34,852 bases of DNA, from positions 1 through 34,852 of the forward strand of contig LT635949.1 of NCBI GenBank assembly GCA_900128565.1, written 5' to 3'. Under the pieces are notes generated by a model. The model did no database searches. It worked only from the letters and a program-made list of their open reading frames with translations, and was not told the DNA's origin. A program made the translations under genes and the position numbers. Position 1 is the first letter of the stretch. Each line of letters begins with the position of its first letter. This DNA comes from Stramenopiles sp. TOSAG23-6 (taxonomy: Eukaryota). Shown here piece after piece: positions 3,123-25,975 of the stretch.

Positions 3123-3195
3123 ATAAAATGCATCAAAAAAAAACCATCTCTTAAAAATACTAGAATCCACATACAACATTGTCATCTACACAAAA

Positions 3196-5392
3196 TCATG
3201 CTCTCCCTGGACATTGAAACCCGTCGGGTCCACAAGCAACATTGTCATCTACACGGTATGTAAATCCTGGGTTTTCAACAGGCCAGACATGACTTCCACC
3301 AGCTGGCATTTTTGGAGCATCAACACATTCAGTACATTTCTTTTCTGGGTCTAAAGTTACTTTTACTCTTGCTTGATGATTACAACAAATACCTAAAACA
3401 TTCCATGTTGATGTCATTTTTTCTGGTTGAGAGTTAAAATCACCATCAATTGCATTTGTTACAATTTCCAACTCAACTTTTTCACCATTTCGAAGTTTTT
3501 CTTTTACATGATCCGGTAAAGCAATTTTTTGCTGAAACTGTTGCCATGCCCAGTGACTTCCCATGCCGGATTGAGGATTTGATCTCATAGCACAATTAGC
3601 AGAGTCTGGATTTTTGGCACGATCATTTGGTCTTTGAATAACCAATTCTCTCTTACTTCTTGGTATTCCGATGGGTCCACTAAATAACTCAGCAGCTTGA
3701 TAAGAATCACCTCCATCAATAGATACTTCAACACGACATATCCCACGACCACCTCCAGACCAAGCTACACCCTCTACAGTTACACTATCCATTTGACCAG
3801 ATAAAGTAGCTCTATCAGGAGGTTCTGAAATGACAGACTGGACAGGTAAAGTTTGAATTACAGGACCTTGATCGAGTCGAAGTTTATCTTCTCCTTCACG
3901 TATGTGACCTTTAAATGTTACATCTGGTGCAAAATGACGATCAAGTTTTGATCCAGAGTCCAACTCTGACGGAGCTTCAGTCAAAATAATTCTAGAAACC
4001 CACTTCACATTACGACAACCAGCATGTCCTGGAGCTAAGAGACGAATAGGGTATCCATGATCACGTGGTAGAGTTTCATCATTCATCTCATACGCAAAAA
4101 TTGTGGAAAAATATTTAAAAAAATAAAAATCGTTAGGTAAAAAATTTTCTTTGTAAAAACTTTGAAATTTTTTAAGTGGACAACATACAAGAATTGCATC
4201 ACCAAATGGATTTACTACTTTTTCAATAGGTATTACTCCAGCATACGGTGTCCCAGTCTCATCCTGGTCTTCTCCAATAAAATTTACTATTTTCACTTTA
4301 GAATGAGAAACGTTTCCTAAAGCCATATATTGTGAAAAAATATGTCGTACGTTTGAAATTTGTTAGGTACGAAAATTGGTACAAAAGAAAATAAATTTGA
4401 AATTAAGTGATAAAAACATACATACCATCTACATCTAAACCTGCAACACGAAATATATCTCGAACTTTTACACCCACCCATTTTGCACAACCAATTGCAC
4501 CACCGCGCCAATGAGGTGCGACATATAAAGGGCGATCAGGGGTGACATAATCTTCTTGTCGATTTCCAGCGCATTGTAAAGCAGATACGACTTCATGTCT
4601 GGGAAATTTAGTCTTGAGATCTGCAAGAGTTAGTTTTAATTCTTTCGTTCCTGCATCTTCATTTGCTTCAATCTCTAAAACATAATCTTCAATATCAACG
4701 CTGGGTACAGGATTATGATTACGTACAAAAAATAAGTCATTTGGAGTTAAAAAATCATTCACCAAAGCTCTAAGTGGCGGTTCCATATTCCAAGGTTTCG
4801 TTGATGGTATGCGCATTTCTGTTGCTTTTGGCCTTTCTGGATCATCCTTGTATGCATCTTCAAATTGAGACTCATTTTTGACAATGATGGCATCTTCAGG
4901 GGATAAACTACCAATCCTATAGTCTTCGAGTAACTCACGAATGTGAGGTCGGTCATGGATTTCGTGATATACCCGCCAAAAGGCATGCAAATCTTGACCA
5001 GAAACCATCATGATACGCATAGCACCACCAGGATGAGCATCCATAAAGTTAGTGACATCATAAACACCACCATTGAGACTGACCCAAACGCGACCTTCAG
5101 GTGCGTTGCGAAACTCGTCCAAGGAGAAGATTCGGTTCAATGTACCTTCTGGAGGAGCTCCACCCGAGCCAAAGGTTCCTGCAACAGGGGCATCATCACT
5201 AAAAGTATTTTGGTTGCTCACAACTGCTGCCGCGAAAGCAGCTGATCCTGCTGCTAATCCATATATACCAAATTTACGGAAATTTGACCTAGGAGGAGAC
5301 ACAATATAACTTAAAGAACGACTTCTCGGTAAAGATAATCTAGACCTTGATGCTGAAAGGTGTAGTCTGTATCCACTATGTCGTAACAACAT
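3196..5392 (-). CDS. Sulfite-oxidase-family molybdoenzyme with an N-terminal cytochrome b5 domain; 3 exons (5392-4422, 4324-4189, 4095-3196; about 668 aa)
   Basis: It has an Arg/Ser-rich mitochondrial-type presequence plus a hydrophobic stretch, and a b5 domain (GVYDVTNFMDAHPGG). The Moco domain shows FFVRNH, LQCAGNR, AYEMNDETLPRDHGYPIRL and RNVKW. The dimerisation domain shows GVAWSGGGRGICRVEVSIDGG. The two ORFs join in frame after removal of two related AT-rich inserts. Confidence 0.9.
4096..4188 (-). other. Non-canonical intron, GT...TT, 93 nt (family member 2)
   Basis: It starts GTATGTTG, contains TACCTAAC and ends ATATTTTTCCACAATTTTT. Removal restores the conserved GDAIL|AYEMN motif. 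Confidence 0.8.
4325..4421 (-). other. Non-canonical intron, GT...AT, 97 nt (family member 1)
   Basis: It starts GTATGTTT, contains TACCTAAC and ends ATATTTTTTCACAATATAT. It contains an in-frame stop, so it must be removed. Joining AT|G gives DGMALGNV. A GT-AG alternative (4425-4317) is also in frame. Confidence 0.65.
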
Positions 5393-5758
5393 TGATGATT
5401 TTTAATGATATTGTAGAGGTCTACACGAGGTTTTGACTAAATTATATACAGGATACAATGTTACAAAATGAATCGATTTTGAAAAGACACCAAAAATTTT
5501 TATGATTGTCGTCAGGTCAGGTAGATTTATTTATTTTTGTGGTGATCTCTTGAAGAAGACGACCGAAGTGTTTCAAGTTTGAATTCAAAAAAAGAAAGTT
5601 CCTGAAATTTTTGGTACGGAATATTGCTATGAAAAAATTAGCTCGCTCTCCATTTATTCATTGTTGGTGCCAGGACAATTTTCAAAAGAAGGAGTAAAGA
5701 AAATATTTGTTTTTTTACCGGTGTGTGAATTTCTCACAAAAGGAAAGTTCTTGTGGAA

Positions 5759-6437
5759 ATGAAAAATCGTGCAAAATTAGGAGTAGCATTATTATGTGCA
5801 TTAGTTGGATTTTTGATTTCCATAGTGGGCTGTATAGTTCCCTGGTCAAGAACGAGTTCAACCGTTGGAGGTTGTCGTTTCACAGGAGAATATGGTGTTT
5901 TGCAAATGTGTCTCGATGTGGAGTGTCCCGCAATAAAACAATATCGTTCTTGCGAGTCTACGACGAATGCACTAAAAGATTGGAGTGGTGAAGGGAAAAC
6001 TGCTTTTTCAAGAACAACATATGGCGCTCTCGCTTTATCTATAGTACGTCAAAATCCTTATCTCCCACCCTAACCCTAATCTCCCATACATTTCAACCAT
6101 ACCTAAAAAAAAATGATAACAATATAAAAGTCTTTCTATACACTAACAAAATTACAAATGCTTCCATTTACAATAACTAAAACAGCTTACCGTCACATTA
6201 TCAAGTATATGTATTGTACTAAATGTATTTTCACTGAGTTGCTCACCTGGACCTTGCTGGAAATGTGTTCACAGTTTTCTTGGTATACTCGGTGCGATAA
6301 CAGCAGGAACAGCTGTTATTCTTGCAAACGAATCCAATATTCTCCTTGTATTTTCTACATCTAACTCCAACCCTAATATTGTATCATATCTATTTGTATT
6401 CATTTTTGTTATTATTGATATATTGTCGACATTGTAG
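5759..6437 (+). CDS. Small four-TM membrane protein with claudin/PMP22-like topology; exons 5759-6043 and 6186-6437 (about 178 aa)
   Basis: TM1 is followed by PW...YGVLQMC...C...C, resembling the W-GLW-C-C loop. Splicing GTACGT...AACAG continues in frame (ALALSI|LTVTLSSICIVLNVF...) through further hydrophobic helices to TAG at 6437. Confidence 0.65.
6044..6185 (+). other. Canonical GT-AG spliceosomal intron, 142 nt
   Basis: GTACGT donor, CACTAAC and AACTAA branch-like motifs, and a CAG acceptor. It contains an in-frame stop, and removal restores the frame. It is A/C-rich and unrelated in sequence to the other four introns. Confidence 0.75.
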
Positions 6438-6659
6438 AATAAACACTACACCTTTAAAGGAATTCACGTAACAACATTTAGTCCGTACATTAGTTTTTAT
6501 TCTATGTGTTGTGTTTCTTTTCTTTTAACGTGTAGTGGTTTGCTAACATGGCATGCCAATTTAAGAAAAAATAATCCAGAATATATTCCAGCTTTTCAAT
6601 ATGCACAGTTTCAGCCTTAAGTGGAGTAGAAAATGAAACTGAATAATGAGAGAAAGATG

Positions 6660-6714
6660 AAAAAAACCTAAGTTTCTTTAGGCACAAAATTTCGTATGAA
6701 AAAAATAAATTTGA
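6660..6714 (-). mobile_element. Degenerate intergenic copy of the internal part of the non-canonical intron family
   Basis: The minus strand reads TCAAATTTATTTTTTTCATACGAAATTTTGTGCCTAAAGAAACTTAGGTTTTTTT. It aligns by eye with the ThrRS intron core TCGAATTTATTTTTCGTACGCAATTTTGTACCTAACAAATGTTAGGTTTTTTT at 45 of 53 positions plus a 2-nt gap. Confidence 0.6.
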
Positions 6715-7005
6715 TGAGTGTACAGTTGAAGAAAATATTTTTACCAAACCTTCATCAATTTTCAGTGGAAGAATCTCCTATATAATAAAAAAAATAATAT
6801 TTGTGTAAAGTTCTTTTTGTTTTACCTTTATTATAATCACAACATCTTATTACTTTATATGAACAAATTTTACGTTTTGTTGTGCTTTCCGGTACAAAAA
6901 AATGTGTTTTTCATAATTTTCTAATAATTAGAAGTATAAAGTAGCAATATCGTCTTGCATGAACTATCACTCTTGTGAATAATAAATTTATAAATTTGTC
7001 ATACA

Positions 7006-7557
7006 TTATTCATAAATACCTACAATTTCAACAGAACCATCTGCATTCACACGGGTTTTCTTAATCCGTTTCAACTGCTTTTTACTCATTTTCTTAATTT
7101 TTTCAACGTTTGTTATAGTTTGATAAGAACTATTTTTAAGCTCGTTTAGTTTTCGCCGTTTCTCTTGTTCCGCTCTTCTTTCTCTCTCTGCGACACGTTT
7201 TAACCTTTTTTTCTCTTTGATTTCATTTTCTAAAGTTTTCATTTGTTTCCTCAGTTTGTTTGCTGCTTGTTTCTTTTCCCATAAAGCTTTACTATTTGCT
7301 ACTTTTTTCCTACCTGCGGCAGAAGATCGACGTGGTTGCTTCCGTTTCCAATGACGATCACTGACACACTTACCAATAGTTTTATTAGTGGATACATCAA
7401 TCGCAGCAACAGATTGAACTGCGTATGGTCTTGGTAATACTTTACCTGTACTTGCTTTAACATCACATAGTGTTCCATCAGGAAATTTTCTCTCTCGATA
7501 TGTAGGTGTCTTGGTAACTTTGGCAGTCACGTTATCCTTTGAAGTCACTGGAGCCAT
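7006..7557 (-). CDS. CCDC86: CCDC86/Cgr1-family nucleolar coiled-coil protein
   Basis: GKCVSDRHWK resembles GKPKSGRxWK. It is followed by WEKK, a basic coiled coil ending RRKLNELK, and QTITNVEKIKKMSKKQLKRIKK. Confidence 0.75.
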   Translation of the reverse strand: MAPVTSKDNVTAKVTKTPTYRERKFPDGTLCDVKASTGKVLPRPYAVQSVAAIDVSTNKTIGKCVSDRHWKRKQPRRSSAAGRKKVANSKALWEKKQAANKLRKQMKTLENEIKEKKRLKRVAERERRAEQEKRRKLNELKNSSYQTITNVEKIKKMSKKQLKRIKKTRVNADGSVEIVGIYE

Positions 7558-7944
7558 GATGTTATGAATTGTATTTTAACTGAAGAATGTATTTAAGTAT
7601 CTCTCTACTATAATATACTTTTGGAGTGGGTCGTAATGTCACAATAACTTCTTGGTGGCGGGGAATCCCAATACTTTCTTGCAGGAATAGTACTTTTCAA
7701 GATGTAGAGTGTGTGTGACTGTTCTTAATTAAACTGGATAGATTTTGAATGTTACCGGGTACGCAAAATGTAACGTCCTGAAATCTGACTACCTCTTTAT
7801 CTATCTATATCTCGTTCCAAACATTTATGTGGTTGGTATAACACAGAAAGTAGTTTGCACCAACGTAATAATGTACTATTTCACCAACATTACCAAATAA
7901 TAGACACAATACAATTGTTCTATATAGACAAACAAAATCATATT

Positions 7945-9048
7945 ATGACATCAAGGTACCTTCCACCAGACATAACTCACTCGACAACAACAAAAAACTT
8001 TCAAAAAAATCATTTTCGTTTATTAGAGGTTTTGGAGGCTACTGTACTAGAAAATGAGGCATTGAAGACTGAAATCTACAATATACACACTAGAGCCATT
8101 GAGACTATTAAAGAGGAGAATAAAAAACAGAAACTTTACAATATTGATAAACAAATCCTTTTGGAAAAACATAATACCTCATTGTCAAAGGAGATAAATG
8201 AGAAAGGCGACTTACAGCAGAAACTAGACATACTTAAAGAAAACCTAAGAATGCATGAAACAAAATTCTTTACTAAGCAAAATGAATGGCATGCAAACAC
8301 AAAGACACTTAGTGACGAAATTTCTGATTTGCGAAAAAAGCTTTGTAATAAAGATAAAAACATTGAAAAGTTATTAGAAAAAGTGAAAAAAGATAAAAAA
8401 AAACACAAGGAAAAAAATTGTTTATTATGTGAAAAAAAATCACAAAAGTTTCTTCTTCTAAAAGAAAGCAATGCCACATTAGAATTAGAGATGTCTAACT
8501 TATTGGTTCAATATAATAGTGTTGTAGACATAAAAAATGAGTTAGACTTTGAGTTAAAAGAAACATTAGAAAAGTTTAAAAAAACTGAAAAGGAATTGAA
8601 AATATTACAGATAGAAAAACAAAAATTTGAAAAAGAAGTAAAAAGATTACGCTTAGAAAAACAAAATTGTACATCAAATTCAGAATCTTCAAAAAACAAT
8701 GCTACATTGTCTAGTATCCCACCTCCACCAAAATTTCAAAAACATAATAACTATAAAGGAACAATTACAGGTGCTAGAATAAAAGAAAGTCAAATTCTTG
8801 GGGAATTAGCCTCTTTAAAGAATGAAAATTTCCACTTGAAACAGAAAAAAGGATATTTTGGAATACGCCATTTACGTGAAACAAAAATGACGATGAATCC
8901 ATTTGCGGAACAGGAATCAATGTATACATCTAAAATATCACTAAATAGTATGACAACTAAGTCTAAGAGAAAACATGAACGCTATAGCGATAAAAATGTT
9001 ACAAACATTGTAGGGAGTAAAATACTAGACGAATTACTACAACGATGA
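7945..9048 (+). CDS. Lys/Glu-rich coiled-coil protein, function unknown
   Basis: Long heptad-rich ORF. The first in-frame ATG is at 7945 (MTSRYLPPD); the ORF track starts at an upstream TTG. Confidence 0.7.
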   Translation: MTSRYLPPDITHSTTTKNFQKNHFRLLEVLEATVLENEALKTEIYNIHTRAIETIKEENKKQKLYNIDKQILLEKHNTSLSKEINEKGDLQQKLDILKENLRMHETKFFTKQNEWHANTKTLSDEISDLRKKLCNKDKNIEKLLEKVKKDKKKHKEKNCLLCEKKSQKFLLLKESNATLELEMSNLLVQYNSVVDIKNELDFELKETLEKFKKTEKELKILQIEKQKFEKEVKRLRLEKQNCTSNSESSKNNATLSSIPPPPKFQKHNNYKGTITGARIKESQILGELASLKNENFHLKQKKGYFGIRHLRETKMTMNPFAEQESMYTSKISLNSMTTKSKRKHERYSDKNVTNIVGSKILDELLQR

Positions 9049-9254
9049 TTTAGATGTGTGAAAATTTTATATGAGAAAAAACATCCAAGTAAGCAAATAA
9101 TTGAAAACCAATTTATTACATTTCATCATAGCGTTTTTGAAAGTAATAAAACATAAATTAAATTGTAGTTTTTAATTTGGTACATTGACAAGCATCATGA
9201 ATAAAATAAAAGAATTGGTATATGGTCATTTATGCAATTACTTTACACACTGAT

Positions 9255-12200
9255 TTATGAAATTGGAGCGTCTGCCAAATTACTACGACATGAACCAGCA
9301 GTAGTTAGTAATGGTTTTCCTTGCCACGTAGCAACACATTCATCATTCGTTTTCAAATCTTTTGCCATTGCTTCCCACAATTTTTTCTTCTTCACTTGGC
9401 TTTTTGTTGCTGGAGTACCACTCAGTCCTTCAATAAATATGCGCTCACCATTCGCTGCACCAACAGGAGGTTCCACAAATTGAACTGCGTCGCCTAGTTT
9501 TGCACATAATACCATTCCCTCACTAGTCACACCAGCTAATTTTGCAGCTTTCAAATTTGCAACTACCAATACTTTTCGTCCTTCCATATCACTTACTTCT
9601 GGATAAAACTGTCGAAGACCTGAACTGATTGATCTCATACCAATTTCTGCTCCTAAGTCAATTTCTTCACACCATAATTTTTCAGAATCAGGATTTGGCC
9701 AAGCCTTTGTTATCGTTCCAACACGTATGTCAATCTTTGTAAATGAATCTTGATTTGGATCAGATGCTACCTTTTGCTTTTTCTTTCCTTTATTAGCATT
9801 TTTGTCACCTTTTTGAATGAGTTTTGCAGCTTCTAGGAGAGCAGATGGTTGTTGAGGTTTATCACAACATTCTTGCTTCATATTAGTAATTATTTGTTCA
9901 ATCGTTTTAACTTCTTGTCCATTTGTACCACGAGGACGAACCGCAGCCGACTTAATTGACATCTCAGCATCGCCAACTATTAAAATATAGTTATATTGAG
10001 CTAGAGACGCCTCACGAATTTTTTTTGGAAACTGTTTTGATGATAAATCTACGGAGACATGAAATCCAGCCATGTGTATTTTCTCCTTTACACTTCGAGC
10101 ATAATCATAATGAGCTTGAGCAATAGGGACAACCATAACTTGACGTGGGCTTAACCAAAGCGGCCATTTCCCACCATAATGCTCAGTAAGTATTGCAAAC
10201 ATTCGTTCAACAGACCCAAGCATTGCACGATGAACCATAACTGGTCTTTGAAACCCAGGAGCAGCTTCAGGATTTGAATTGGGTAAATTTTTATAAACAC
10301 CGCGACAAGAGGAGGATGATTCTGATTTCTTTTTTTGTTTCTTTTCTTTGGATTTTTCATTATCTGATTTTCGAATTTGTTCACCTGTACGATATTGTAA
10401 ATCGAAACGAATAGGTAGATTAAAATCTAATTGTACTGTAGCACACTGATGAATTCTGTCCATACAGTCAAATACTTTAATGTCAATTTTAGGACCATAA
10501 AATGCACCATCCCCAGGGTTATCTTTCCAATTGCCTTTTCCAGCAAACTCATCTAAAGCATTTGCTAATGACTCTTCAGCATCATCCCATCGTTTAAGTC
10601 CTTCAGGAGTATCAGCACCAACTGCTTTTTTAGGTCGAGTACTACGCTCAAGTTTAAATTTCATACCAAAAATAGAGTATACAGCTTTCATAAATTGAAG
10701 TGAACCAACAACTTCATCTTTCACTTGTTCAGGGGTGCAAAATATATGTGCATCATCTTGCTGGAAACGTCTGACACGTGTCAATCCAGTTAATGCACCA
10801 GAACGTTCATTACGATGTAAAACACCAAAATCAGCCATTCTGATGGGCATTTCTCTGAAAGTTCTGATTTGTTGACGAAACATTAAACAATGTCCAGGAC
10901 AATTCATTGGCTTCAAGGCAAATTCATCCTGATCACTTGTATTAAATAAAAACATATCATCTCTGTAGTGCTGATAATGACCTGAAATTTTCCATAAATC
11001 AGTTGAAAAAATATTCGGTGTAACAACTTCATCATAACCGCGCTGCCAATATTCATTTTTTATGAAATCGATTAAAGCATTGTATATACGAGCACCATGA
11101 GGAAGAAAGAAAGCTGATCCTGGAGTTAAATCATGAAAGAAAAATAATTGTTGACGAGGCCCAATGCGACGATGATCATTCATTCTTTTCAATTCCATCA
11201 CAGCTTTCCATTTTTTCATTTCTTTTTTATCAGGGAATGCAACACCATGTATTTTGGAAAAATATTTCAAAAAAAAAACCTAACATTTGTTAGGTACAAA
11301 ATTGCGTACGAAAAATAAATTCGAAATTGAAAAAAAATAAAACATACATATACACGCTGTAGTGAGTCACATTTTTCATCACCCATCCAATATGTTGCAC
11401 TATGTTTTATAACATCCATACACGTAATTGAAGAGGTTGTAGGCACGTGTGGTCCCATACATAAATCAATAAATGGTCCATTTTTGTACACTGTCGTAAA
11501 TGTATTATCTGTGACTTTTGTTCTTATAATTTCTAATTTAAAGGGATTATACTCAAACAACTCAAGTGCTTCAGCTTTAGAAACAATCATTCTTTCAAAC
11601 ACTTGTTTTTCTTTAATTGTTGTAGCATTTCTCTTGCTTAGTACCTGGTACCACTTTTCTTCTGTGACAACGTCTTTACCTACAAAAGCATCATAATAAA
11701 AACCATTTTTTAGTGGAGGACCAATGGTCAAGACAGCACCGAATTCACGCTCCATACTTTGACCTAGAATATGAGCTGCAGAGTGCTTAAATGTTGTTTT
11801 ACCCTCTGGTGTACTGTAATTATGAAAAATAATGTCACAATCGCCTTCTAGTGGTCTATTTAAGTCCCACAACTCAAATTCTTGTTTCTCACTGGCGGTA
11901 GTTGTATCCATCTCGTCTCCACCAGCCTCAGCCATCATTTCTTCTTCAGCGTGTGTCACAATATCAGCACCATATCTTACACCAGTATAGCGAACTTCTG
12001 CAACAAGTTGACGTTTAGCCATTTGTTTTGAAATGTTTAATGCAATCATCATTGGTGTAGTTTCCCACGTTGTTCCAGGGTGAGTCTTCTTATCTGGCAT
12101 GGTGACTGTCATTGCCTCCCGTGGTTTTTCAAGAAGACGTTTTTCATACGCAGCTTTTACACGATTATATACATCTTCACGAGCAGCAATAAACTGTGGC

Positions 12201-12397
12201 GATTTACACCCAGAATAAGAATCGCCTCCAATTTTACCTTTAGATTGAAGAGTATGGACTTGACCTTCGACAGCACGGTCTTTGTTGACACGACCTAATG
12301 TGCTCTGGAGCACATGGACATCCCCACTGCTCACTTTCAAGCGAGAAAGTTCTGCTTCCAATTCAGCAATACGTTGATCTCTTTCGTTTGGCGTCAT
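9255..12397 (-). CDS. TARS1: Cytosolic threonyl-tRNA synthetase with a C-terminal EMAPII-like tRNA-binding domain; exons 12397-11348 and 11246-9255 (about 1013 aa)
   Basis: TGS region (WETTP, LWDLNRPLEGDC), editing domain (HSAAH, GFYYD, DLCMGPH), LQRVY|GVAFPDKK across the intron, and DHRRIG. Catalytic motifs are LKPMNCPGHC, GLTRVRRFQQDDAH, GAFYGPKID and HRAMLGSVER. The anticodon domain is followed by IDIRVG...NLKAAKLAGVTSEGMVLCA. Confidence 0.95.
11247..11347 (-). other. Non-canonical intron, GT...AT, 101 nt (family member 3)
   Basis: It starts GTATGTTT, contains TACCTAAC and ends ATATTTTTCCAAAATACAT. It shifts the frame and contains a stop. Exact removal restores LQRVY|GVAFP. Confidence 0.8.
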
Positions 12398-12624
12398 TTT
12401 GCACTACCAAAGATAAGACAACAATCTGAGAATTTACTCAAAAGAATAATTGGATTATTGTTTATTACCTATGCGCGAGTAAGTAGTATATACTGCGTGC
12501 GTGCGTGTTTACGATACACGTGTGTGAGTGGTAGCTGAACTAGTTTTTTTGCCATTATTGGCCCAGCAGTTTTGTGCCAATTGAAAAGAAAAAAAAAAAA
12601 ATTTTATTGTTTTACAATAATGTT

Positions 12625-14106: not shown

Positions 14107-14334
14107 TTTATGGGGTATACTCTATCTCGATTTATTGATATTTCTTATCACAGCTGTAGCAACTCATTAGAAATGTATACAGCAGTACGATTATTCATAC
14201 TGAGCAAATATCAGGACATTACTTGAGTAGTGCATGCGGTAGTTCTATTGTTTTATTTCATTAATATAATCTATAGATCATAGCTTCTACAGCAATAGAT
14301 TGTAACTATCTATACGTAGTAGTAAATTTCTCCG

Positions 14335-17500: not shown

Positions 17501-20500
17501 TTGACTGTATCTTTGATTCGGTCATAATTTGGTATTTCCCCATACTCAGTCTGTTTATTAATTTCAATAATTTGATTCCGTAGTTTTTGATATTTCCTGC
17601 AAGCGCCAATACATTTTTTCATATATAAAAATATCATAGTAAACATATCAACTGCATGATTAATTTGCAATTTACCTTTCCCATCCTTATTATAAGATTG
17701 CCAAATTGGTCTTAATTCAGAAACTCGTAGTTGTCCTAAAACACTAAACTTCAAACTTTTCATGCTTTTTGCATTTTGCGAAATTCGCGCAATGGCTGGA
17801 AGAAGTGCAGAAGTCAGTACGTCTTCATAATCACCAAATATTGTACTATAACGTGAATTATCATTCTCATTAATATTATCTTGTGTTGATTGAGGAAACT
17901 GCTCTGTACTTGGAGCATTTTCATCCAAATTTATGATTTTCAAATTTTGTAATTTATCTTTCTTTAATAATGCGACTTTTCGAAGATTTACTGCTTCTTC
18001 TGACCAATCTTCTACATGGAATCCAGCTAAAGCATGTTTTAATCGAAGGCGATCACCTACTCTTCGAATACCTAATTTTGTACTTAAAATATGATCGATA
18101 TAAACATCTCTCTCGCTACCAACCTTTTCATTATGTAATATATTTTTTGTTTGATCACCGATGATACCTTTTCGATCATCTATATCTGTACCTAAGATTG
18201 ATGCCTTCATTGCAAGTAAAGCATCAGAAGTAATGTTATGTTGCCAAAACTTTGATATAAAACTTGACATATTTAGCGATGATAAAAACATTTCCACAAT
18301 GACATCTCGAGGATGTACGACTGATGGTGATGGTTCAACTGATGGTTCAACTGATGGTGGTAGTGTTTGAGCATCATGTCTCTGTAATGATGCCACCCTT
18401 CTTGCTCCACTTGCGCTTTTTATTTTTCTACTATTTTTCTTACTTATCAAAGCAGATGATGTTTGAGGGCGACGTCCCAGTGGAATATTTGTCCCTTTTC
18501 GTGGAACATATATCTTTCTCTCTTTACCATTCTTCTTCGAATTATTTTTTCTATCCATCAGTGAATAAGATTTCGTGGTCTTTACATTAGGTTTTTGCCT
18601 AATTTTTCTTTCTATCTCAACTGTTGAGAGTTTCAAAAAGTTTTCTAAATATTTCAAATTGGCTGATGAAGGATCACCATGATTTCGGAGTAATAATAAA
18701 GTATACGGATTTTGTTTTTCATTACTATATTGATAAGGACTTTGCAACGCTGTCCTAATATTTATACTTGAATCACGTTCATTTATAGTACGTTGTTGTG
18801 ATGTATATCGCGTTGGTTTGGCTGAGTATGGTCTACGTTTATATTTATTGCTTTGTTTTTTGTGTACTGCAGAAAATGGTCGAGGTTTTCGAATTATTTT
18901 TTTTTTCGTGCTTTTCTTCTTTATTTTAATACCCATTGGCTCTATATTATTTTTTATCGCTTTCCCCATTCCAGATGAATGATGCTTGGCTATATTTTTA
19001 TTTTGTATCCTTGACATAAATCGATTATAATCAGCTCTACGTATCGGGGAACATTGTCGCCGGGATGTGTCAGTTAATTTAATAAAACTGCTATCTGGTG
19101 TTTTCAACTGTTCATTTTTTCCTTTTGTTTCTTCAGTACTTTTTCCTTTTGTTTCTTTAGTACTTTTGTTTATATGACTAGCTGTTGTTTTTTCATACTC
19201 AGGTGGAACATTAAGGCTTAGAGAAGTTATATCTGGCGTAGAAACAGGTTTATCCATAGCCATTATTGTCATATACGGATTTTCATTATTTCCGTTCTTT
19301 CCTACTCGTGGTCCTACAAGTAGTGTTTGTGGTACCAGAAATTCTGCATCGTGCATATTGCCATCTGGGCCCTTTACAGGAATTCGTGACTTATGAATAT
19401 TATTCCAAGATGTTTTCAATGGAGGAACAAAGCTATCATTATTTGTATGTGCTTTTTTTTTATTTCTCTTTTTTTGTAGATCTTTTGATTTTTTTTTAAC
19501 TTTAGTCCGTTTCTTAAATATTTTGTTTCGGAACACTTTGTAACGCTGATTAACAGTTTTCTCATCAAGATATGATTTACCTAGTTCTTTCAACATACTT
19601 TTCTGTTGTTTCTTATGCCAATCTGTGTTTGCTTTTACTTCAGTGATTAATGAGAGACTTTGCGACATAACATTACTATGATTGATATCTGGTGTTACTG
19701 CAAAATGAATCGTCCCATTTTTATTTAATACATCATCTGCACTTGATTTGACTGGCGTAAAATCACCTAATTGATTATTGACTTTATCAAACATTGGTGT
19801 TTTTATTTGTTTCATTGGCACTTTTGTATATTTTAATGGCGCTTTATATTTTATTGGTGATTTTGTTTGCTGTATTAGTGTTTTTCTTTGTCGAATTGGT
19901 GACTTCGTTTGTTTTATTGATGATTTTATTGGTTTTACTGATGATTTTACTTGTTTTACTGGTGATTTTTTTTCTTTCAGTTTTTTTATTGACGTTTCCA
20001 TGTCATTTGAGTTACTTTCAATGATATATTTTTTCCAGTTAGGAATATTTTGTTGTAGTGCATCTAATCCACGCATAGGTCTTGGATCAACATATTTTGT
20101 ATTATCAGAATCTGTAGTATTCTTTGCAACATCTGTAGAATTATCATTCTCATTATCTATTGTATTATTATTCTCAACATCTATTGTATTATTATTCTCA
20201 ACATCTATAGTATCATTATTCTCAACATCTATAGTATCAGTATTCTCAACATCTATAGTATTATTATTCTCAACATCTATAGTATCATTATTCTCAACAT
20301 CTATAGTATTATTAGTAACACTTTCAGAATTGAGAACTGCTTTCTGCAACGTTTCGGAGACAATACTTTTATCTGCATTAGTTTGTGTAAGTAAATTATC
20401 TGAAAGATGTATTGCAAGTGCCTGTTCATGCATGGCTTTTGCTTCAGAAACTCTACCAAGTTTTTCTAATTGACTGCCATGACTATGATAAGCAATTACT

Positions 20501-21405
20501 AAATTACTTCTATGACTCCTTGCTTTTTGAGTTAATTCATGAATTTGAGATCTCACAGAAACATCTTCCACAATACTATTATTATCAATATTCTGATCAC
20601 TGTCAATGTTATTTTTACTACCAGTAGGAGATGTAGAACCAAAAAAAGAACCACTATAAAGACTTTTCGATGTATGTATTGATTCGCTATTTGTAGTCGT
20701 TTTCAATATTTTGTCTATTGTTTCGCCAATTATTTCGATTTCTTCTTCTAAATTTTTTATCGCAATGAGTGAATATTGTAATGCATCATAATGCTGTTGA
20801 TTTGAAGCCAATAATGAACTCATATTTAGTGACGTAACTGCAATCAATGGCCGACATCCTACACCATTTTTTATAGAATCACTTTCCATATTTTTATGAC
20901 CATCTGGTAAAGAACTTGCTATAGAATATGCTCTATCCAAGTGTTTCATTGCTAGCTTTGGTTGAGCAATCAACTGATAAAATAGAGCGAAATTATTGCT
21001 AGTAGTCACGTGTGCTCGACCAACGTTAGCGTAAAGATACATTTTCTTCTCTTTCATGGCGGTATTGTTAAAAGAAGGGGAAGCTAAAGAAGAAGGAATT
21101 ATTCCAGTAGTGTTTTGATCATTCCAAGGTGGCAAAATTGACGCAGCTTCGACTAAATATCTACGTATCAATTGATATTTTGAAGCATTGCGACGCTCTA
21201 TATATTGTCTAGCAACATGATTTAGGTGCTCTGTAAGTAATAAAGTTTGAGATATCGTATTTATAGACTGAAGACCGCTTTCTTTACGAACAAGTAGCAA
21301 AGATCGCTTACTTTGTTCAATCGACTGTTCTAATTTCCCTTTATTCCACAAATCAGTAGCTTCATCTTCACTTTGTTGAACTGACTCGCTTTGTACACCA
21401 TGCAT
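14539..21405 (-). CDS. 2288-aa multidomain protein: TPR-like N-terminus, low-complexity region, SAM-like domain, EF-hands, several IQ motifs and a C-terminal EF-hand pair
   Basis: Uninterrupted ORF with TPR-like helices (NNFALFYQLIAQPKLAMKHLDRA; AYHSHGSQLEKLGRVSEAKAMHEQAL) and a SAM-like segment (MFLSSLNMSSFISKFWQHNIT...LGIRRVGDRLRL). IQ motifs are IQSIGRGYLTR, LQSFHRGRLTR and IQSTYRAAKTR. EF loops are DINNDGYVEWTE, DTFNSGMVSYED and DTDGDGYMTANE. Confidence 0.85.
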   Translation of the reverse strand: MHGVQSESVQQSEDEATDLWNKGKLEQSIEQSKRSLLLVRKESGLQSINTISQTLLLTEHLNHVARQYIERRNASKYQLIRRYLVEAASILPPWNDQNTTGIIPSSLASPSFNNTAMKEKKMYLYANVGRAHVTTSNNFALFYQLIAQPKLAMKHLDRAYSIASSLPDGHKNMESDSIKNGVGCRPLIAVTSLNMSSLLASNQQHYDALQYSLIAIKNLEEEIEIIGETIDKILKTTTNSESIHTSKSLYSGSFFGSTSPTGSKNNIDSDQNIDNNSIVEDVSVRSQIHELTQKARSHRSNLVIAYHSHGSQLEKLGRVSEAKAMHEQALAIHLSDNLLTQTNADKSIVSETLQKAVLNSESVTNNTIDVENNDTIDVENNNTIDVENTDTIDVENNDTIDVENNNTIDVENNNTIDNENDNSTDVAKNTTDSDNTKYVDPRPMRGLDALQQNIPNWKKYIIESNSNDMETSIKKLKEKKSPVKQVKSSVKPIKSSIKQTKSPIRQRKTLIQQTKSPIKYKAPLKYTKVPMKQIKTPMFDKVNNQLGDFTPVKSSADDVLNKNGTIHFAVTPDINHSNVMSQSLSLITEVKANTDWHKKQQKSMLKELGKSYLDEKTVNQRYKVFRNKIFKKRTKVKKKSKDLQKKRNKKKAHTNNDSFVPPLKTSWNNIHKSRIPVKGPDGNMHDAEFLVPQTLLVGPRVGKNGNNENPYMTIMAMDKPVSTPDITSLSLNVPPEYEKTTASHINKSTKETKGKSTEETKGKNEQLKTPDSSFIKLTDTSRRQCSPIRRADYNRFMSRIQNKNIAKHHSSGMGKAIKNNIEPMGIKIKKKSTKKKIIRKPRPFSAVHKKQSNKYKRRPYSAKPTRYTSQQRTINERDSSINIRTALQSPYQYSNEKQNPYTLLLLRNHGDPSSANLKYLENFLKLSTVEIERKIRQKPNVKTTKSYSLMDRKNNSKKNGKERKIYVPRKGTNIPLGRRPQTSSALISKKNSRKIKSASGARRVASLQRHDAQTLPPSVEPSVEPSPSVVHPRDVIVEMFLSSLNMSSFISKFWQHNITSDALLAMKASILGTDIDDRKGIIGDQTKNILHNEKVGSERDVYIDHILSTKLGIRRVGDRLRLKHALAGFHVEDWSEEAVNLRKVALLKKDKLQNLKIINLDENAPSTEQFPQSTQDNINENDNSRYSTIFGDYEDVLTSALLPAIARISQNAKSMKSLKFSVLGQLRVSELRPIWQSYNKDGKGKLQINHAVDMFTMIFLYMKKCIGACRKYQKLRNQIIEINKQTEYGEIPNYDRIKDTVNLYVKSLSNEIMDEWQMQSKLDAEMTVTVTDINNDGYVEWTEIINSHTGLLGHDTDILQVESTEKKIKSSAKQKKQNKKKIKSIKSTKNKEKNNVEKIVPVRHQRLKRTKQKQRLKSRSKTEETEAPKLKQRNAIVKSAQSEQKSRNQTEEKAESEKKSEKKLKKIKKVKEKSALKSALKSDLPVPYPGRSPQAKKRIQSIQNTCDNNNIQKTMKNDIHDNDNIQKTVKNDIHGNNSIQKTVENDIHDNNNYLDSSDYITSAIQIQSIGRGYLTRNIGKKLKQHEQKQTIAAIRLQSFHRGRLTRGTLCTRNKAALLLQRIIRASAVRKDMLHKNRSALQIQTYARIVIACRKVATIKIERKREGDYQRKTACARYDIKKGHNDSMKVLQKSEAIKRGNVVVAVVDLNSNTPNELNTINDLASGSSIEYDDDERVDQKGNKNKKHKTHKNASQIIGQTCHKYILRTHARLKVAVTLQALYKQYDKKRTINNHNNAAIVIQSTYRAAKTRNFVKMKKRASRGGGRVGFADDKINAARLERDRLRGQYTQEIELAIARQKAQKARRTRKIRLHSPTNVTFSLDSTKDMTDESKQKTTINNTIDKNDDTIDTNELLQKLSSGAAFLRVRGINMRKLLRCTDSIDPMKRVGALPTKTFCKVLTPILMDFLSLPEINQLAKNFDTFNSGMVSYEDFVTCSLDIKYKTKFNKLEICSVRKIQKMVRLKRNILIATTAYADKINNVDNDNNIEVNNDMGSIDNNNNMNAIENNDLIDIDNNNIMHDIDDTNINQNDFFLDFSQEIENVKERARNRAAIVIQQHVRNQQNKNDSTDTNNDTIDINNNNIDTNSYTVDINNNNNIENINNIDTNSYSVDVNNNSIENNNDSIDTNSDSSYDENEEKYDPHEILDAMTQQERLEFKWKTSFNLCDTDGDGYMTANELKHWLCGLGHEVDIYDARELLDIGSGGNGSGKLTFTAAKGILLGLGGESST
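20155..20312 (-). repeat. Coding 24-nt minisatellite encoding (N[ND]TIDVEN)n, about 6-7 copies
   Basis: Repeated TTCTCAACATCTAT units on the plus strand. The translation shows NNTIDVEN/NDTIDVEN repeats. Ends are approximate. Confidence 0.85.
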
Positions 21406-21715
21406 TATTCTAATATATGACTGTGCATATATCTATAATCAAATGTTAAAGCAAAATGGAGAAAGTGAATACAATTCAGAACAGAACCTTGCGTATAACA
21501 ACGTGGTAGTAAACTATTAGTAATTTTTACTCTAGCTACTGGTACAAGCCTAATAACACTATAACGCTAATAATTGGTAACGGCCAAAAAATAAACGGAT
21601 GAACAAACCGAACAAACCTGTTGTTCTCTTCGATTTTGAAATTGAATGAAATGAAATGAAAGAATTCAATTTGATTTACTTTAGTTGATCTTTTACTAAT
21701 GCCAACATCAACACA

Positions 21716-22306
21716 ATGGATCGGATAACATGCTCACAGGAGGAAGAACACATTTCTTCATCAGATGATGATCTTCCAAGTCTTGCAAATAGACTACGTT
21801 GCAAAATGTCATCAAATATTTCTTTCTTAGTTGTATCGTCAACAATAGCTGACCTTCAAACAAAAAATGGCGAGAAAATCGTCACTGCACTATCGAAAGC
21901 ACAGCGAAGAGCATATCGAAAAAAAGCTCGACAGGATAACTTACGGAGTACTCAGTACAATGTTGATATTACAAAAAGTGGAAAAAATTTAAAGAAAGAA
22001 AATAAATTTAGCCTGAATATAGATGAGAATCATAAGAAAACAAATTATAATAAAAGTGTGGTGAAGACAACTTTGCCATCTAGTGTGTCAAGTGTACCTA
22101 AAGCATTACACGCCAAACGTCCCGTAATCTCTACCATTGACAGTGAACCAGCCATAAAAAGACAAAAAGCAAAAAATGCAATAGATTCAAAATTAACAAA
22201 AAGTGCAATAGATTCAAAATTAACAAAAAGTGCAATAGATTCAAAATTAACAAAAAATCCATGGTCACTATCTCTACTAAAGGGAAAAAAAAAAGTTGCA
22301 AGTTAA
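21716..22306 (+). CDS. Basic low-complexity protein, function unknown; possibly a partial duplicate of a locus at the right window edge
   Basis: 196-aa ATG-initiated ORF, divergent from the 2288-aa gene. Its last codons are duplicated exactly at 34798-34852 on the minus strand. Confidence 0.55.
   Translation: MDRITCSQEEEHISSSDDDLPSLANRLRCKMSSNISFLVVSSTIADLQTKNGEKIVTALSKAQRRAYRKKARQDNLRSTQYNVDITKSGKNLKKENKFSLNIDENHKKTNYNKSVVKTTLPSSVSSVPKALHAKRPVISTIDSEPAIKRQKAKNAIDSKLTKSAIDSKLTKSAIDSKLTKNPWSLSLLKGKKKVAS
22177..22257 (+). repeat. 27-nt coding tandem repeat x3 (AIDSKLTKS)
   Basis: TGCAATAGATTCAAAATTAACAAAAAG at 22177, 22204 and 22231 (the last copy ends in A). Confidence 0.95.
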
Positions 22307-22389
22307 AGTAAAAAAGACGAAAGAGATCGGACAACCATTTTTTCTTCTCTAAAAGAAGAACACTAACTATACTATATACATTTTTGATT

Positions 22390-24444
22390 TTATAAACGAC
22401 ACCTAATCGTTTCTTGAATTCTATAATTCTGTTTTTCATTATACTGCTGCTCTCTTTTTCCAGTAGTAGTTTTATATTTAATTCCCAAGTTGCCGACAGC
22501 AAAAACATTCTGTGGATCAACAGCACTCTTGAAACCAGACAGCATATTCATGCCGACATTAGAAATAACTCGTGGCATCCATTTTTGTCGTATCTTACCG
22601 ACACCATGATGATGCGACAAAGCACCACCACACGCCAATACTTGATTTCGTGCGTTTGTCTCTATTGTTTCAAATAAATGAATCACTTCTTCTGCAGCCT
22701 CTTTTTCGTGCTTTCCTCTTTTCTTAAATTCATCAAAAACATGTCCAAATGGCATGGCCACATAAAAATATATAGCAGCCCCAGACGCATATGTTTGAGT
22801 CACTCGACAACATACAAATGGATCACCTGGAATACCTAAAGTGGAAAAACTTTGAGCAATATTCTGCTTCACTAATGTACACAACTCATTCACTCTTCCC
22901 CAAGGAACTGAAGTTTCAAAACTTTCAGCCAATAAACCATAATTCATTCCAAAATCTCTAATGTAAGCGATTAAATACGTAAGTAAATATCCGCGCATAC
23001 CATTCTCACTGCCACCATTCATTCCACCATATTTTTTAACAATACTAAAAACATTTCTTTGTTGTTGACGAACCTGATCGCCAGTGCCCTCAAAAAGAAG
23101 AGTCATTGCCACCATTTTTTCTGGGTTAAAGCCTTTATATTTCGTGACATAAAACTTTTTTGCTGAATCAACAACGTGATCATATAGAGGAGTCGCACTC
23201 GTAGGTTTCATTACTCTACCAAGTTGAAATTGTAAATTATCCATTAATCGTATTGAAGCAGGTTTGTTTGTCGCCGATGAAGATACATTGGCTACTTCTT
23301 TCATGGCAGAAACCCCAGCTTCAAATGATGGAAAAATAACCGAACCATACTCACATACTGCAGGCAATTCTTGTAATTTAACCACACATTCTGTAATAAC
23401 ACCAAACATTCCTTCACTACCTATAATCATTTCTATCATATCTGGACCAGTAGACACTCTACCTCCTTCACGACAGGTAAGTTCCAATGTCCCCGTTGAA
23501 GTTACAACACGTACATTAAGAATAATATCTTCAATATTGCCATACTTATTTTTCTTCATTCCTGATGCCCTTGTAGCAACCCAACCACCCAACGTCGAAA
23601 ACTCCGATGAATCAGGCTCATGACCTAACTTTAACCCTAATTGTGAAAGTTCTTCCTCCAGTGAAATACCAACTGCTCCAGCCTGAATTTTTGCCGTCAT
23701 TGACTCACGATCTATCCATAAAATATTATTCATTTTTTTCATATCAAGTACAACAACCATGCGACCTAAGGATTGATCCGACATACATTGAAGCGCCCCT
23801 GTAACGTTGGTACCCCCACCATACGGGATAATACATACGTTATGAGTGATTGCAGCTGTAACAATAGCTACGACATCTTCATGTGAACGAGGGTAAATTA
23901 CACAGTCAGGTGCAATGTGATACTGTTTTACGTTCTTCGTTGCAATATTTGAACTTTTCATATTTGATTTATCACGGTCTAAATCTGAAATCACAGAAGA
24001 AGGACCGGAAGGATAATCACAAGGAGTTCCCCATCGTAAATTCATCATCTCTTCTGAAGTTTGACCGTGAGAGTGCTTTAATCGAACTTTGTTATCTATA
24101 GATATTGCACCAAAACAAGGAGAAATTGCACCTCTTTCAGGTTCGTCGATGCAAATTTCCCCTAGTTCAGTGACCCCAATGGCTCCCAAAAATTGTTTAT
24201 TCAAATATGGAACAGGAAGAACAGGAGGTCCAGATCGACCTTTGTTTGGATTATTTAGATCCATCATAGGAAATCGTTCCTTGATAAAAGAGATAAATTT
24301 TGGAAGTACACGACCAGCAGAAAATATAGAGGCAAAACGCTTACCAGTGATATAAATAGAACTTGATGCTGAAGAGGCAGTACCATCGACAGCAAATGCT
24401 GTATCTTCGAAACCCCAACCATTCCAACGCTCATGGTCTGACAT
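22390..24444 (-). CDS. AGPS: Alkyl-dihydroxyacetonephosphate synthase (FAD-linked, ether-lipid synthesis)
   Basis: Motifs WNGWGFEDT, HSHGQT, IIPYGGGTNV, GHEPDSSEFSTLGGWVATRASGMKKNKYGNIED, GSEGMFG, ESFETSVPW, CRVTQTY and LSHHHGVGK. The protein ends in CRL. The first ATG is at 24444. Confidence 0.95.
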   Translation of the reverse strand: MSDHERWNGWGFEDTAFAVDGTASSASSSIYITGKRFASIFSAGRVLPKFISFIKERFPMMDLNNPNKGRSGPPVLPVPYLNKQFLGAIGVTELGEICIDEPERGAISPCFGAISIDNKVRLKHSHGQTSEEMMNLRWGTPCDYPSGPSSVISDLDRDKSNMKSSNIATKNVKQYHIAPDCVIYPRSHEDVVAIVTAAITHNVCIIPYGGGTNVTGALQCMSDQSLGRMVVVLDMKKMNNILWIDRESMTAKIQAGAVGISLEEELSQLGLKLGHEPDSSEFSTLGGWVATRASGMKKNKYGNIEDIILNVRVVTSTGTLELTCREGGRVSTGPDMIEMIIGSEGMFGVITECVVKLQELPAVCEYGSVIFPSFEAGVSAMKEVANVSSSATNKPASIRLMDNLQFQLGRVMKPTSATPLYDHVVDSAKKFYVTKYKGFNPEKMVAMTLLFEGTGDQVRQQQRNVFSIVKKYGGMNGGSENGMRGYLLTYLIAYIRDFGMNYGLLAESFETSVPWGRVNELCTLVKQNIAQSFSTLGIPGDPFVCCRVTQTYASGAAIYFYVAMPFGHVFDEFKKRGKHEKEAAEEVIHLFETIETNARNQVLACGGALSHHHGVGKIRQKWMPRVISNVGMNMLSGFKSAVDPQNVFAVGNLGIKYKTTTGKREQQYNEKQNYRIQETIRCRL

Positions 24445-24726
24445 CTTGTGTATCACTCACCACCAGAAATATTTAACGCAAAGACAATACTGTGGCAAAA
24501 TAATTGTGTGTGTCTACAATTTTCGTCTCTGCTACGTATTTCTTTTCATTGACATTTTTTTTGTGTGAATATTTTCGAAGTTCCTCAACAACACGAAAAC
24601 AAACGAAAAAAATGAAAAAAAACGAATTCAGGAACGACATCATCTTCTTGATTTGAAAAAACAAGGTTCTCTTCTTTTATGTAAACACTACCTTCAGTCA
24701 AAAACATAAGAACAACTTCAAGAATT

Positions 24727-25975
24727 ATGGCGAAGGGACATGGTCTTAATTCATGCTACTTGGCAATTTATTATGCAACGTTATCAATAGTTTGGTTAAG
24801 CTTAGCAGTATATGCTTCATTATTTTACGAAACTTATGAAGAAAACTGTTCCGCGACTTGTCCGCTTGTTACTTTAGATGTTGCCTATGTTAATGAAAAA
24901 ATTGCAGCAGGGGACCAAAGAGTAATAGACTTCTATGGTGGTGCAACATATAATAATGATCCAATTAATACAGTATCTTCAAAATTTTGTTACAGATCGG
25001 GGGCAATATGTCTTAAAAAACCTGAGACCGATGGACAATTGCGTAACCAGTGCGAAGTTTACAGTGAAATTTATAATCTGACAGCAGCAGACGCTTGGAA
25101 ATACAAGTGCTTGATTTGCGATGAAACCAATCAGTCTAGAGTCTTATGGCCTTCTTTAACAACATCACTAGAGAGTTTTTGGAACGTAGCACAACCTTGC
25201 GGCGAAGTAAGTATAGTACCTGGAATACCAGAGACGGATATCCCCACAGCGCTTTTTCCAGATATGCCAATCGACTCTCGTCAAGAAAAAGGCTATTTCA
25301 GGTATCCATTCGGTGTAGGCGATTATACAATGTGTTATAACTTTGATGAACCAAGTGATTTCTGGATTACTGTAGCAAAATTGTCTCTTAAAATTTCTAT
25401 TTATATTTTTTTCATTAATTCAACTTTAGGTTTACTATCAGCGGCGATACTGGCAACGTTTCATAAAGTACTTTTAAGCGATTGGAATAGACTGTCACTT
25501 CCCAAGCAATGTGCTTCATACTTATTGACAATTATGATGAAATTACTTAAAATTTCATGGTTGATTGGTTTCTGCGTTTCCTTTATTGCTTTAGGTACTA
25601 ATGGATTGGATAAAACTTGCGTTTTTCAAGAAACTGAATTAGGGTCCGTTGATGTTTATCCAAAGGCAGAAGCGTTTTGTTGGGCCTCATTTATTTCTTA
25701 TTTATTAGTACTCATCTATCGTAATTTTAGAAGGCAAGATATTGTGTGTTGTCTATTTTAATTTCAAATATATTTTTTTATTGAAAATTTCTAACCTGAC
25801 GAATTTCAAACTTATAACATATTTTCTTACTATACTTATCGGTGATGTGCAGTTTATGTATATACCATATGAACTATCGCCAGTTAGATCTGATGATAAG
25901 TGTGACTGTGGAAGTTTCTATCGTGTTTTTTTACAACCATGCTTTGTATATTTTGAAAAATATGTCGGCCCATAA
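24727..25975 (+). CDS. Multi-pass membrane protein with a Cys-rich luminal loop; exons 24727-25743 and 25838-25975 (about 384 aa)
   Basis: N-terminal TM, a Cys- and N-glycan-site-rich loop, then three further hydrophobic helices. The two overlapping ORFs join in frame once the family intron is removed. Confidence 0.7.
25744..25837 (+). other. Non-canonical intron, GT...TT, 94 nt (family member 4)
   Basis: It starts GTGTGTTG, contains AATTTCAAA and AACCTGAC, and ends ATATTTTCTTACTATACTT. Cutting at the end of the 19-nt block gives the in-frame join RQDI|IGDVQF. A CAG at 25850-25852 is an in-frame alternative. Confidence 0.55.

Follow-up and report, generated by a model that had tools for sequence, protein, structure and literature searches.

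Known systems with related introns

How a newly arrived transposon can act as a harmless intron is a central question that is still open, and the introners described so far bring or recruit both GT and AG. The present work concerns four inserts of 93 to 101 nucleotides (nt) in three unrelated genes of contig LT635949.1 from Stramenopiles sp. TOSAG23-6 (assembly GCA_900128565.1). The 34,852 nt analysed are referred to below as the window. The four inserts begin with GT, carry a branch-like site and end in AT or TT. We consider it fairly probable that they are spliceosomal introners, removed scarlessly at a 3' splice site that is not AG.

The closest described elements are introners of the Micromonas pusilla, Aureococcus and Chrysochromulina types. 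As far as the available portions of the sources describe them, they resemble the inserts in being short similar copies in unrelated genes, with splice signals in one orientation. Their borders also carry repeats like target-site duplications, the element is removed with one of the duplicates, the mRNA is left unchanged and high copy numbers are reached in marine protists. The Chrysochromulina-type introners have the same layout as the inserts studied here; the accessible text gives them a 5' site of their own, a 3' site derived from the duplication and no clear terminal inverted repeats (PMC9860276, PMC11282704). Many described introner families are likewise reported, in the parts available, to be without terminal inverted repeats. 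The 3' site recruited in these accounts is AG, whereas in all four inserts of the window the dinucleotide that appears to be duplicated is AT or TT, so that no AG is recruited.

Non-AG ends are known from Fritillaria borealis, where introns derived from miniature inverted-repeat transposable elements (MITEs) have 3' ends including AT (AU), the upstream exon shapes the 3' site, and removal is thought to be carried out by the U2-type spliceosome. In that species the 5' end is non-canonical as well (AG-AC and AG-AT prevail), about 95% of the introns are affected and the unusual 3' ends are bound by U2AF1/U2AF2 paralogues that arose by duplication. The inserts described here differ in having a textbook 5' site and branch site, with ordinary GT-AG introns alongside. 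Amoebophrya, also a marine protist, has repeated introns with direct repeats of 3-5 nt across the borders and termini other than GT-AG. Its elements carry inverted repeats of 8-20 nt that form hairpins, their terminal dinucleotides are inconsistent and U1 snRNA was not detected, whereas in the inserts no hairpin was predicted by consensus folding and the GT is invariant.

The nonconventional introns of euglenids and hemistasiid diplonemids share with the inserts the pyrimidine/purine (Y/R) borders, short junction repeats and a proposed MITE origin, according to the available text. They are described there as being without a U1-pairing GT donor or a pyrimidine tract and as needing pairing of their ends, and in Euglena a circular RNA is left. 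The inserts, by contrast, have a donor, a branch motif and a T tract, and pairing of their ends was not supported. In human U2 introns, rare alternative TG 3' sites show that the major spliceosome occasionally ligates at a non-AG site; as far as the accessible part of that report goes, these sites are sporadic, occur beside a normal AG and end in TG and not in AT or TT, and do not form the constitutive terminus of an entire intron family (PMC2374985).

Large introner surveys begin from annotated introns, and the 2025 survey counted AG or AC as familiar at the 3' side and dropped families in which unfamiliar sites prevailed and RNA support was missing, as stated in the available text of these sources. 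Because of this starting point and this filter, a non-AG family would be missed or given wrong borders. In the literature searched, supplements aside, no description was found, for stramenopiles or marine stramenopile (MAST) lineages, of an intron family with GT..non-AG borders. The accessible text of the MAST-3 genome paper mentions introns in the methods only (PMC5778133), and that of a 2026 preprint on single-amplified genomes (SAG) only in the methods or under genome architecture. We class the inserts with the transposon-derived non-canonical introns, as a variant whose lineage and combination of signals were not found described in this literature.

The insert family

An initial annotation, made from the sequence alone, had placed four sense-oriented inserts in the window, and their coordinates, strands, lengths and end blocks were all found in the sequence as given (Table 1). 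The layout proposed there, with a GTRTGT start, a CTRAC branch-like site and no terminal AG, was borne out, and the family also has a T-rich tract. All four copies have a donor of the GTRNGT type (GTATGT in three, GTGTGT in one), and in each of them ACCTAAC or ACCTGAC lies 37-43 nt before the 3' end and is followed by the T-rich tract. The GT register is the only one common to all four copies, and no shift of the register from -3 to +1 puts an AG at the 3' end of any of them.

Table 1. Inserts, related copy, ordinary introns and host genes in the window (positions on the forward strand)
Feature	Position	Strand	Length	Location	Termini or exons	Internal parts or RNA joint	Junction repeat
Insert 1	4325..4421	-	97 nt	sulfite oxidase gene, phase 2	GTATGT start, AT end	ACCTAAC 4362-4368; end block 4329-4343	TATG
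Insert 2	4096..4188	-	93 nt	sulfite oxidase gene, phase 0	GTATGT start, TT end	ACCTAAC 4132-4138; end block 4100-4114	TTG
Insert 3	11247..11347	-	101 nt	threonyl-tRNA synthetase gene, phase 0	GTATGT start, AT end	ACCTAAC 11289-11295; end block 11251-11265	ATG
Insert 4	25744..25837	+	94 nt	orphan membrane-protein gene, phase 0	GTGTGT start, TT end	ACCTGAC 25794-25800; end block 25819-25833	TT
Partial decayed family copy	6657..6714	-		between two convergent genes	without donor, without end block	profile positions 24-79	
Ordinary GT..AG intron	6044..6185	+	142 nt		GTACGT start, CAG end	CACTAAC; joint 6043 to 6186, X10 record 4	
Ordinary GT..AG intron	6348..6437	+	90 nt			joint 6347 to 6438, X10 record 4	
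Host gene 1, sulfite oxidase	3196..5401	-			exons 5401-4422, 4324-4189, 4095-3196		
Host gene 2, threonyl-tRNA synthetase	9255..12397	-			exons 12397-11348, 11246-9255		
Host gene 3, membrane protein	24727..25975	+			exons 24727-25743, 25838-25975		

The inserts aligned with a mean column identity of 76% over 104 columns (MAFFT). When the window was searched with an nhmmer profile built from the four, they were recovered at E values of 1.7e-17 to 2.9e-15. A partial, decayed copy was found at E 3.6e-5, and the next match had an E value of 0.66. The internal motifs were also more frequent in the window than expected: AATTTCRAA occurred 12 times (4.36 expected), ACCTRAC 11 times (4.55 expected) and the end-block pattern with up to one mismatch 8 times (1.10 expected), and none of 100 shuffles reached the observed count in any of the three cases. 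Exact matches to the end block were the four inserts (n = 4). GTRTGTT alone was not enriched in the window (12 against 12.85 expected).

The decayed copy lies about 290 nt past the stop codon of a minus-strand open reading frame (ORF) at 7006-7575, and may be sense-oriented in the 3' untranslated region of that gene.

Reading frames and protein junctions

Removal of the inserts exactly at their borders left open frames in all three host genes, as had been proposed in the initial annotation. The sulfite oxidase gene then comprised 672 codons and the threonyl-tRNA synthetase (ThrRS) gene 1016 codons, the sole stop being terminal in both, and the membrane-protein gene was open over 339 + 46 codons. 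The in-frame joins do not show how the 3' site is chosen, since the same is true of any insertion that is removed with one copy of its target site. Inserts 1, 3 and 4, if retained, either disrupt the frame or bring in stop codons, which makes their removal obligatory. Insert 2 can be read through without a stop and would add 31 amino acids (aa).

In order to locate the junctions in the proteins, the exactly joined sequences were aligned with their longer homologues, and alignments gapless within ±8 aa of a junction were counted. For sulfite oxidase, 90 of 119 matches were used (at least 450 aa), and for ThrRS 97 of 119 (at least 700 aa, P0121 being left out); the shorter homologues were excluded because they need not span the junctions. 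The junction was gapless in 86 of the 90 sulfite oxidase homologues at insert 1, in all 90 at insert 2 and in all 97 ThrRS homologues at insert 3. Chicken sulfite oxidase reads DVLL directly followed by AYEMN, where the window reads DAIL and then AYEMN, and the leftover is exactly the 31 residues encoded by insert 2. The close relatives P0002 (76% identical), P0003, P0004, P0007 (a TRINITY transcript) and P0008 read DVDGMALG and GDA[IL]LAY[EDK]MNG. This reading, with GMALGN and DAILAYEMNG, is that of the window protein after removal at the borders of the initial annotation, so that exact removal fits. At three of the four junctions, precise removal at non-AG borders is strongly implied by these alignments.

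The same alignments bear on cryptic canonical splicing, in which each GT would be paired with the nearest usable AG, which would leave the mRNA with short in-frame deletions or with an insertion of 11 codons. Such an AG lies near every insert, ending at 4317, 4087, 11280 and 25852. The initial annotation had listed all four as in frame, which holds for the last three; the AG at 4317 is out of frame with the GT at 4421 and is in frame only with an overlapping GT at 4425, a join that gives 665 codons with one terminal stop. The effects on the proteins were as follows. In insert 1 the first AG after the branch motif is found at +8 from the exact 3' end, out of frame with the GT of the family, and the join from 4425 to 4317 loses four residues of GMALG, in a region that is gapless in 86 of 90 homologues. 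In insert 2 the first AG is at +9, in frame, and its use would strip AYE from a strand, AYEMN, that has no gap in any of the 90 homologues. In insert 3 it is at -33, inside the element and in frame, just 10 nt from the branch A, and would add 11 residues between LQRVY and G, where 97 of 97 homologues are gapless. In insert 4 it is at +15, in frame, with a loss of 5 residues.

Several observations speak for this alternative. The organism recognises AG in its ordinary introns (see below), insertions of some introner families add or delete one or more codons next to them according to the available text of Gozashti et al. (2022), and with the AG join the tail of the insert 4 protein would be 43 aa long, within the 43-45 aa of four distant homologues, against 48 aa with the exact join. 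The public gene model of the ThrRS locus also uses such an AG. This model is P0121, which is identified as the gene model of the present locus because every block of it that aligns with the window is 100% identical. By our reading of the alignment, it joins an exon GT at 11353 to the AG at 11280 across insert 3. It consequently has LQR-VFFLKYFSKIH-GVAFPD at a place where LQRVYG[VI] is found in all relatives, so that an 11-residue artefact is included and two conserved residues are dropped. P0121 has seven more spurious gaps inside what is a continuous ORF, and the segments lost include the conserved ...KHSAAHILG... and RSTRPKKA. Gene callers that force GT-AG borders, or that place introns ab initio, thus corrupt proteins in this assembly and in genomes of this kind. 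Taking into account the conserved segments that would be lost or interrupted, the short distance from the branch A in insert 3 and the need for a donor other than the family's own GT in insert 1, cryptic splicing to AG is considered unlikely, also in view of the RNA contig described next.

RNA and DNA reads

Public runs matching the stretch came from seven studies, all of them marine. Four runs were placed on positions 3100-23099 (20 kb): X2 and X6 (2016, with a metatranscriptomic label), X10 (2024, polyA) and X5 (2024, DNA). Record 4 of X10 crosses both ordinary GT..AG introns in spliced form (Table 1). The organism splices ordinary introns and X10 detects splicing; since these introns coexist with the inserts in the window, the recognition of AG has not been lost.

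Both RNA-confirmed introns lie in a small gene at 5750-6620 on the plus strand. Telomere-like CCCTAA motifs were observed in each of them, as ccctaaccctaa at about 6068-6079 and as ccctaa at about 6371-6376.

Record 1 of X10 is a contig of 949 letters, of which letters 62-949 lie on 3207-4094; the other 61 letters are not contiguous there. The last position expected for an exact junction at insert 2 is 4094, when the cut is placed leftmost among three ambiguous letters (G, T, T), and this is the position observed. The contig contains 4087-4094 and no letters of the intron. Since 4087-4094 is present, the AG at 4087 was not the acceptor in this molecule. Splicing to that AG, or retention of the insert, had been named in the initial annotation as the outcome that would speak against its proposal, and neither was found in this one contig. 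Record 1 is a moderate hint of an exact RNA junction at insert 2, not a proof, and the absence of insert 2 from mature polyA RNA at the exact border is thereby partly shown. The X10 depth was 0 at 4173 and 4185 within insert 2, which reflects a coverage hole and is no evidence of removal, because it was also 0 at 4588 in an exon.

The DNA run provided the counterpart. Record 15 of X5, from an independent 2024 study, runs through 3100-5636 with no gap; inserts 1 and 2 are therefore part of the DNA, and among the X5 joints listed none removes either of them. The single-nucleotide polymorphisms of X10 are those of this insert-bearing run at three of four listed exon sites. Two of the nine X5 differences listed for 3100-5636, a partial list, lie within the 93 nt of insert 2.

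One of the X5 variants (plus strand, 4185 A>G) turns the donor of insert 2, GTATGT, into GTACGT, which still fits the consensus and is the form found in the ordinary intron at 6044.

These results also bear on the reading that no removal at the RNA level takes place, that is, that the inserts mark inactivating alleles, that insert 2 is read through, or that the inserts are removed at the DNA level or absent in the expressing nuclei or in other strains. Insert 2 is indeed stop-free in frame, many element-bearing contigs occur in the RNA runs, and an exact RNA junction alone is indistinguishable from an empty-site allele. Against this, the three unrelated genes, ThrRS among them, are otherwise intact long ORFs, and three of the inserts break the frame; inserts 1 and 2 stand in the X5 DNA contig, with no listed joint that removes them. 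The strict sense orientation and the built-in splice signals would be left unexplained, and the share of X5 differences found in insert 2 suggests that it is non-coding. This reading is held to be very improbable.

X2 and X6 were uninformative on splicing, because their contigs cross both GT-AG introns unspliced, together with intergenic DNA, with 0 mismatches (e.g. 5404-7526). Despite their cDNA record, these two runs behave like genomic DNA of the same strain.

The family proved to be highly repetitive in both recent runs. On the 20-kb stretch 3153 contigs were placed from X5, thousands of them on the element, and 457 from X10. The summed bin depth over insert 3, which is not to be read as copy number, reached 12556.7 in X5 (DNA) and 2712.2 in X10 (polyA), against about 3-10 elsewhere. 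Loose ends and cross-copy joints cluster at 11247, the 3' end of insert 3, and at 11349/11350, 2-3 nt before its GT, and many cross-copy joints of X5 link about 6705 to 11247-11330. The flanks of other copies diverge at 11247 and at 11349/11350, and the repeat unit ends where the intron of the initial annotation ends. Insert 3 is the copy nearest to the abundant family members.

Mobile-element features

The inserts are an introner-like family of short mobile elements, probably non-autonomous (MITE-like). This assignment follows from the intergenic copy, the sense orientation of the genic copies, the donor, branch site and T tract that each copy brings along, the junction repeats and the repetitiveness. 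The family of the initial annotation is real and more than chance; what had been overlooked there are the repeat of the terminal dinucleotide, the intergenic copy and the massive repetition in the DNA and RNA runs. It had further been proposed that the 3' site is set at a fixed distance from the conserved end motif. The argument for this mechanism was not supported, because the end block is the terminus of the element: any transposon terminus would show the same, and a fixed distance to the junction says nothing on splicing by itself. The family statistics are those of four copies plus summed read tables.

The last 2 nt of each insert are identical to the 2 exon nt before its GT (AT, TT, AT and TT, 4 of 4). 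The junction repeats sum to 12 nt; random pseudo-inserts gave a mean of 0.79 nt each, and 42 of 20000 random sets reached this sum. Position -2 varies by locus and matches in all four copies (A/A, T/T, A/A, T/T), while -1 is always T and -3 matches in one of four. A target-site duplication of 2 bp is likely from this pattern, four copies being too few to separate it from a junction consensus.

Other registers and element types were tried as well. A TA target-site duplication was rejected, as the TA..TA register fits insert 1 only, and an AT..AC register, as it fits insert 3 only. The consensus of U12-type introns is /RTATCCTT at the 5' site and TCCTTRAC at the branch site, which lies 10-20 nt before the 3' end. 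With a GTATGTT donor and a branch motif 37-43 nt from the end, the inserts were rejected as U12-type on motifs. An internal eliminated sequence of the ciliate type was rejected because inserts 1 and 2 are present in independent metagenome DNA and the TA register fits insert 1 only.

Insert 3 with its 2 upstream nt has a perfect inverted terminus of 6 bp (ATGTAT...ATACAT), of which the other three copies show a partial match only. ACCTAAC occurs on both strands of insert 3 (11278-11284 plus, 11289-11295 minus), and these paired sites form a 7-bp hairpin, CCTAACA...TGTTAGG, which the other copies are without. One X2 contig is 9 nt shorter in this hairpin region and is probably another copy of the family.

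The structure predictions are relevant to a further alternative, exact excision by a non-spliceosomal route of the euglenid or diplonemid type. In such a case the ends would be paired, a circular RNA might be released, and GT and CTRAC would be incidental or a backup. Y/R borders are indeed found at both junctions of all four inserts (T/G at the 5' side; T/G three times and T/A once at the 3' side), with short direct repeats across the borders. A 3-bp pairing of +4..+6 (UGU) with -9..-7 (ACA) is possible in inserts 1 and 2, yet it is broken, and not compensated, in inserts 3 and 4. RNAalifold predicted 0 consensus pairs for the four inserts, and the single folds were no better than shuffles (z 0.76, 0.22, -1.77 and 0.96). 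Moreover, the strong donor, the branch motif and the T-rich tract are features that nonconventional introns lack. We regard this route as improbable.

Further copies of the family were searched for outside the window. In metagenome contigs at least 117 loci fitted a loose pattern, all of them chance occurrences among the matches listed (best nhmmer E value 0.034). Viral contigs gave 5 chance loci with one pattern and 0 with a second, and genome contigs gave 0.

Proposed removal of the inserts

In the reading that we favour, with scarless spliceosomal removal at a non-AG site, the element would insert and duplicate about 2 bp of its target (AT or TT). It would bring its own 5' splice site (GTRTGT), branch site (ACCTRAC) and T-rich tract, in one orientation. 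Splicing would start at the GT of the element and use the CTRAC branch 37-43 nt before the end. The unit removed would be the element plus one copy of the duplicate, and the exons would be ligated after the second duplicate dinucleotide, so that the mRNA would be restored exactly. Whatever the target was would form the end of the intron, in this window AT or TT and in no case AG. Since these two terminal bases differ from target to target, they cannot be the signal themselves, and the site would have to be set either by the terminus ...ATATTTTYYYAMWAT(N2) or by the distance from the branch point. The agent is presumably the major spliceosome, with the non-AG site placed by one of these two features.

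A number of observations weigh against this reading. The RNA support comes from one contig of one study, and an X10 strain lacking insert 2 in its DNA would give the same contig end. Among the X10 and X5 joints listed, none spans any of the four inserts. Element-bearing contigs with foreign flanks were found in X10, with at least 7 loose ends at 11247 and at least 3 at 11349, and they point to other loci at which the element is retained or DNA was carried over. In three of the four inserts, and in all four with the donor at 4425, the GT is in frame with the first AG that follows the branch, as would be expected if cryptic AGs were used under selection; by our own arithmetic, the chance of three or more in-frame AGs out of four, at 1/3 each, is about 0.11. 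The case for a target-site duplication turns on one variable position in four copies. The conserved flanking codons could be left over from a recent insertion. We know of no mechanism by which the major spliceosome ligates at AT or TT after a start at G+1.

The junction of insert 4 also belongs here, since homology leaves it undecided. Seven homologues of the gene were found by an HMMER library search, all of them distant (best 33% identical), and a word-index search found none. With their C-terminal motif FRxxxx[IM]ETxF[YF], the exact join fits in content and the AG join in length, the latter being counted after FRR as given above; the homologues are too distant for a decision.

More tentatively, it is possible that two modes of 3'-site choice exist in one nucleus of MAST-3: AG for ordinary introns, and AG-free ligation for a high-copy class derived from transposons, at a position set by the conserved end of the element or by the copied target-site duplication. 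If this is true, any insertion would be excised scarlessly whatever the target, which would imply that a specialised factor (a U2AF-like paralogue, an adaptation on the side of Prp8/Slu7 or a small RNA) evolved together with the transposon. A family excised with an arbitrary 3' dinucleotide would need no suitable target and could colonise any coding position. It would also offer a natural system for AG-independent ligation with a canonical donor and branch, beside AG-dependent splicing.

Host genes and other features of the window

The window is gene-dense and intron-poor, with about 35% G+C and long open frames with standard stop codons. The sulfite oxidase has cytochrome b5, molybdenum cofactor (Moco)-binding and dimerisation domains, as evidenced by Pfam, by matches in the Protein Data Bank (PDB) and by the relatives P0002-P0008. 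The ThrRS carries a tRNA_bind domain at its C-terminus (Pfam), and no Pfam family was found in the membrane protein of host gene 3. The best ThrRS match, P0121, has a EukProt label beginning GSMAST32, and further ThrRS matches are labelled MAST-4 and INCI, the latter presumably Incisomonas. The label of the best match points to a marine stramenopile of the MAST-3 group as the host.

Rfam gave nothing at the gathering threshold over the whole window and nothing at E ≤ 1 for 4050-4470, and ARAGORN found no tRNA genes in the window. At 26115-27425 (minus strand) a SAP-domain protein is encoded, whose kinase domain matches profile positions 6-151 of 263 only. Either this is a truncated pseudokinase, or one of its exons escaped detection; downstream of the gene, no family insert and no obvious intron were seen. 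An uninterrupted ORF of 2297 codons extends over 14539-21432 on the minus strand. In Pfam, only C-terminal EF-hands score above the curated cut-off, and matches to TPR_12 and SAM_1 fall below theirs.

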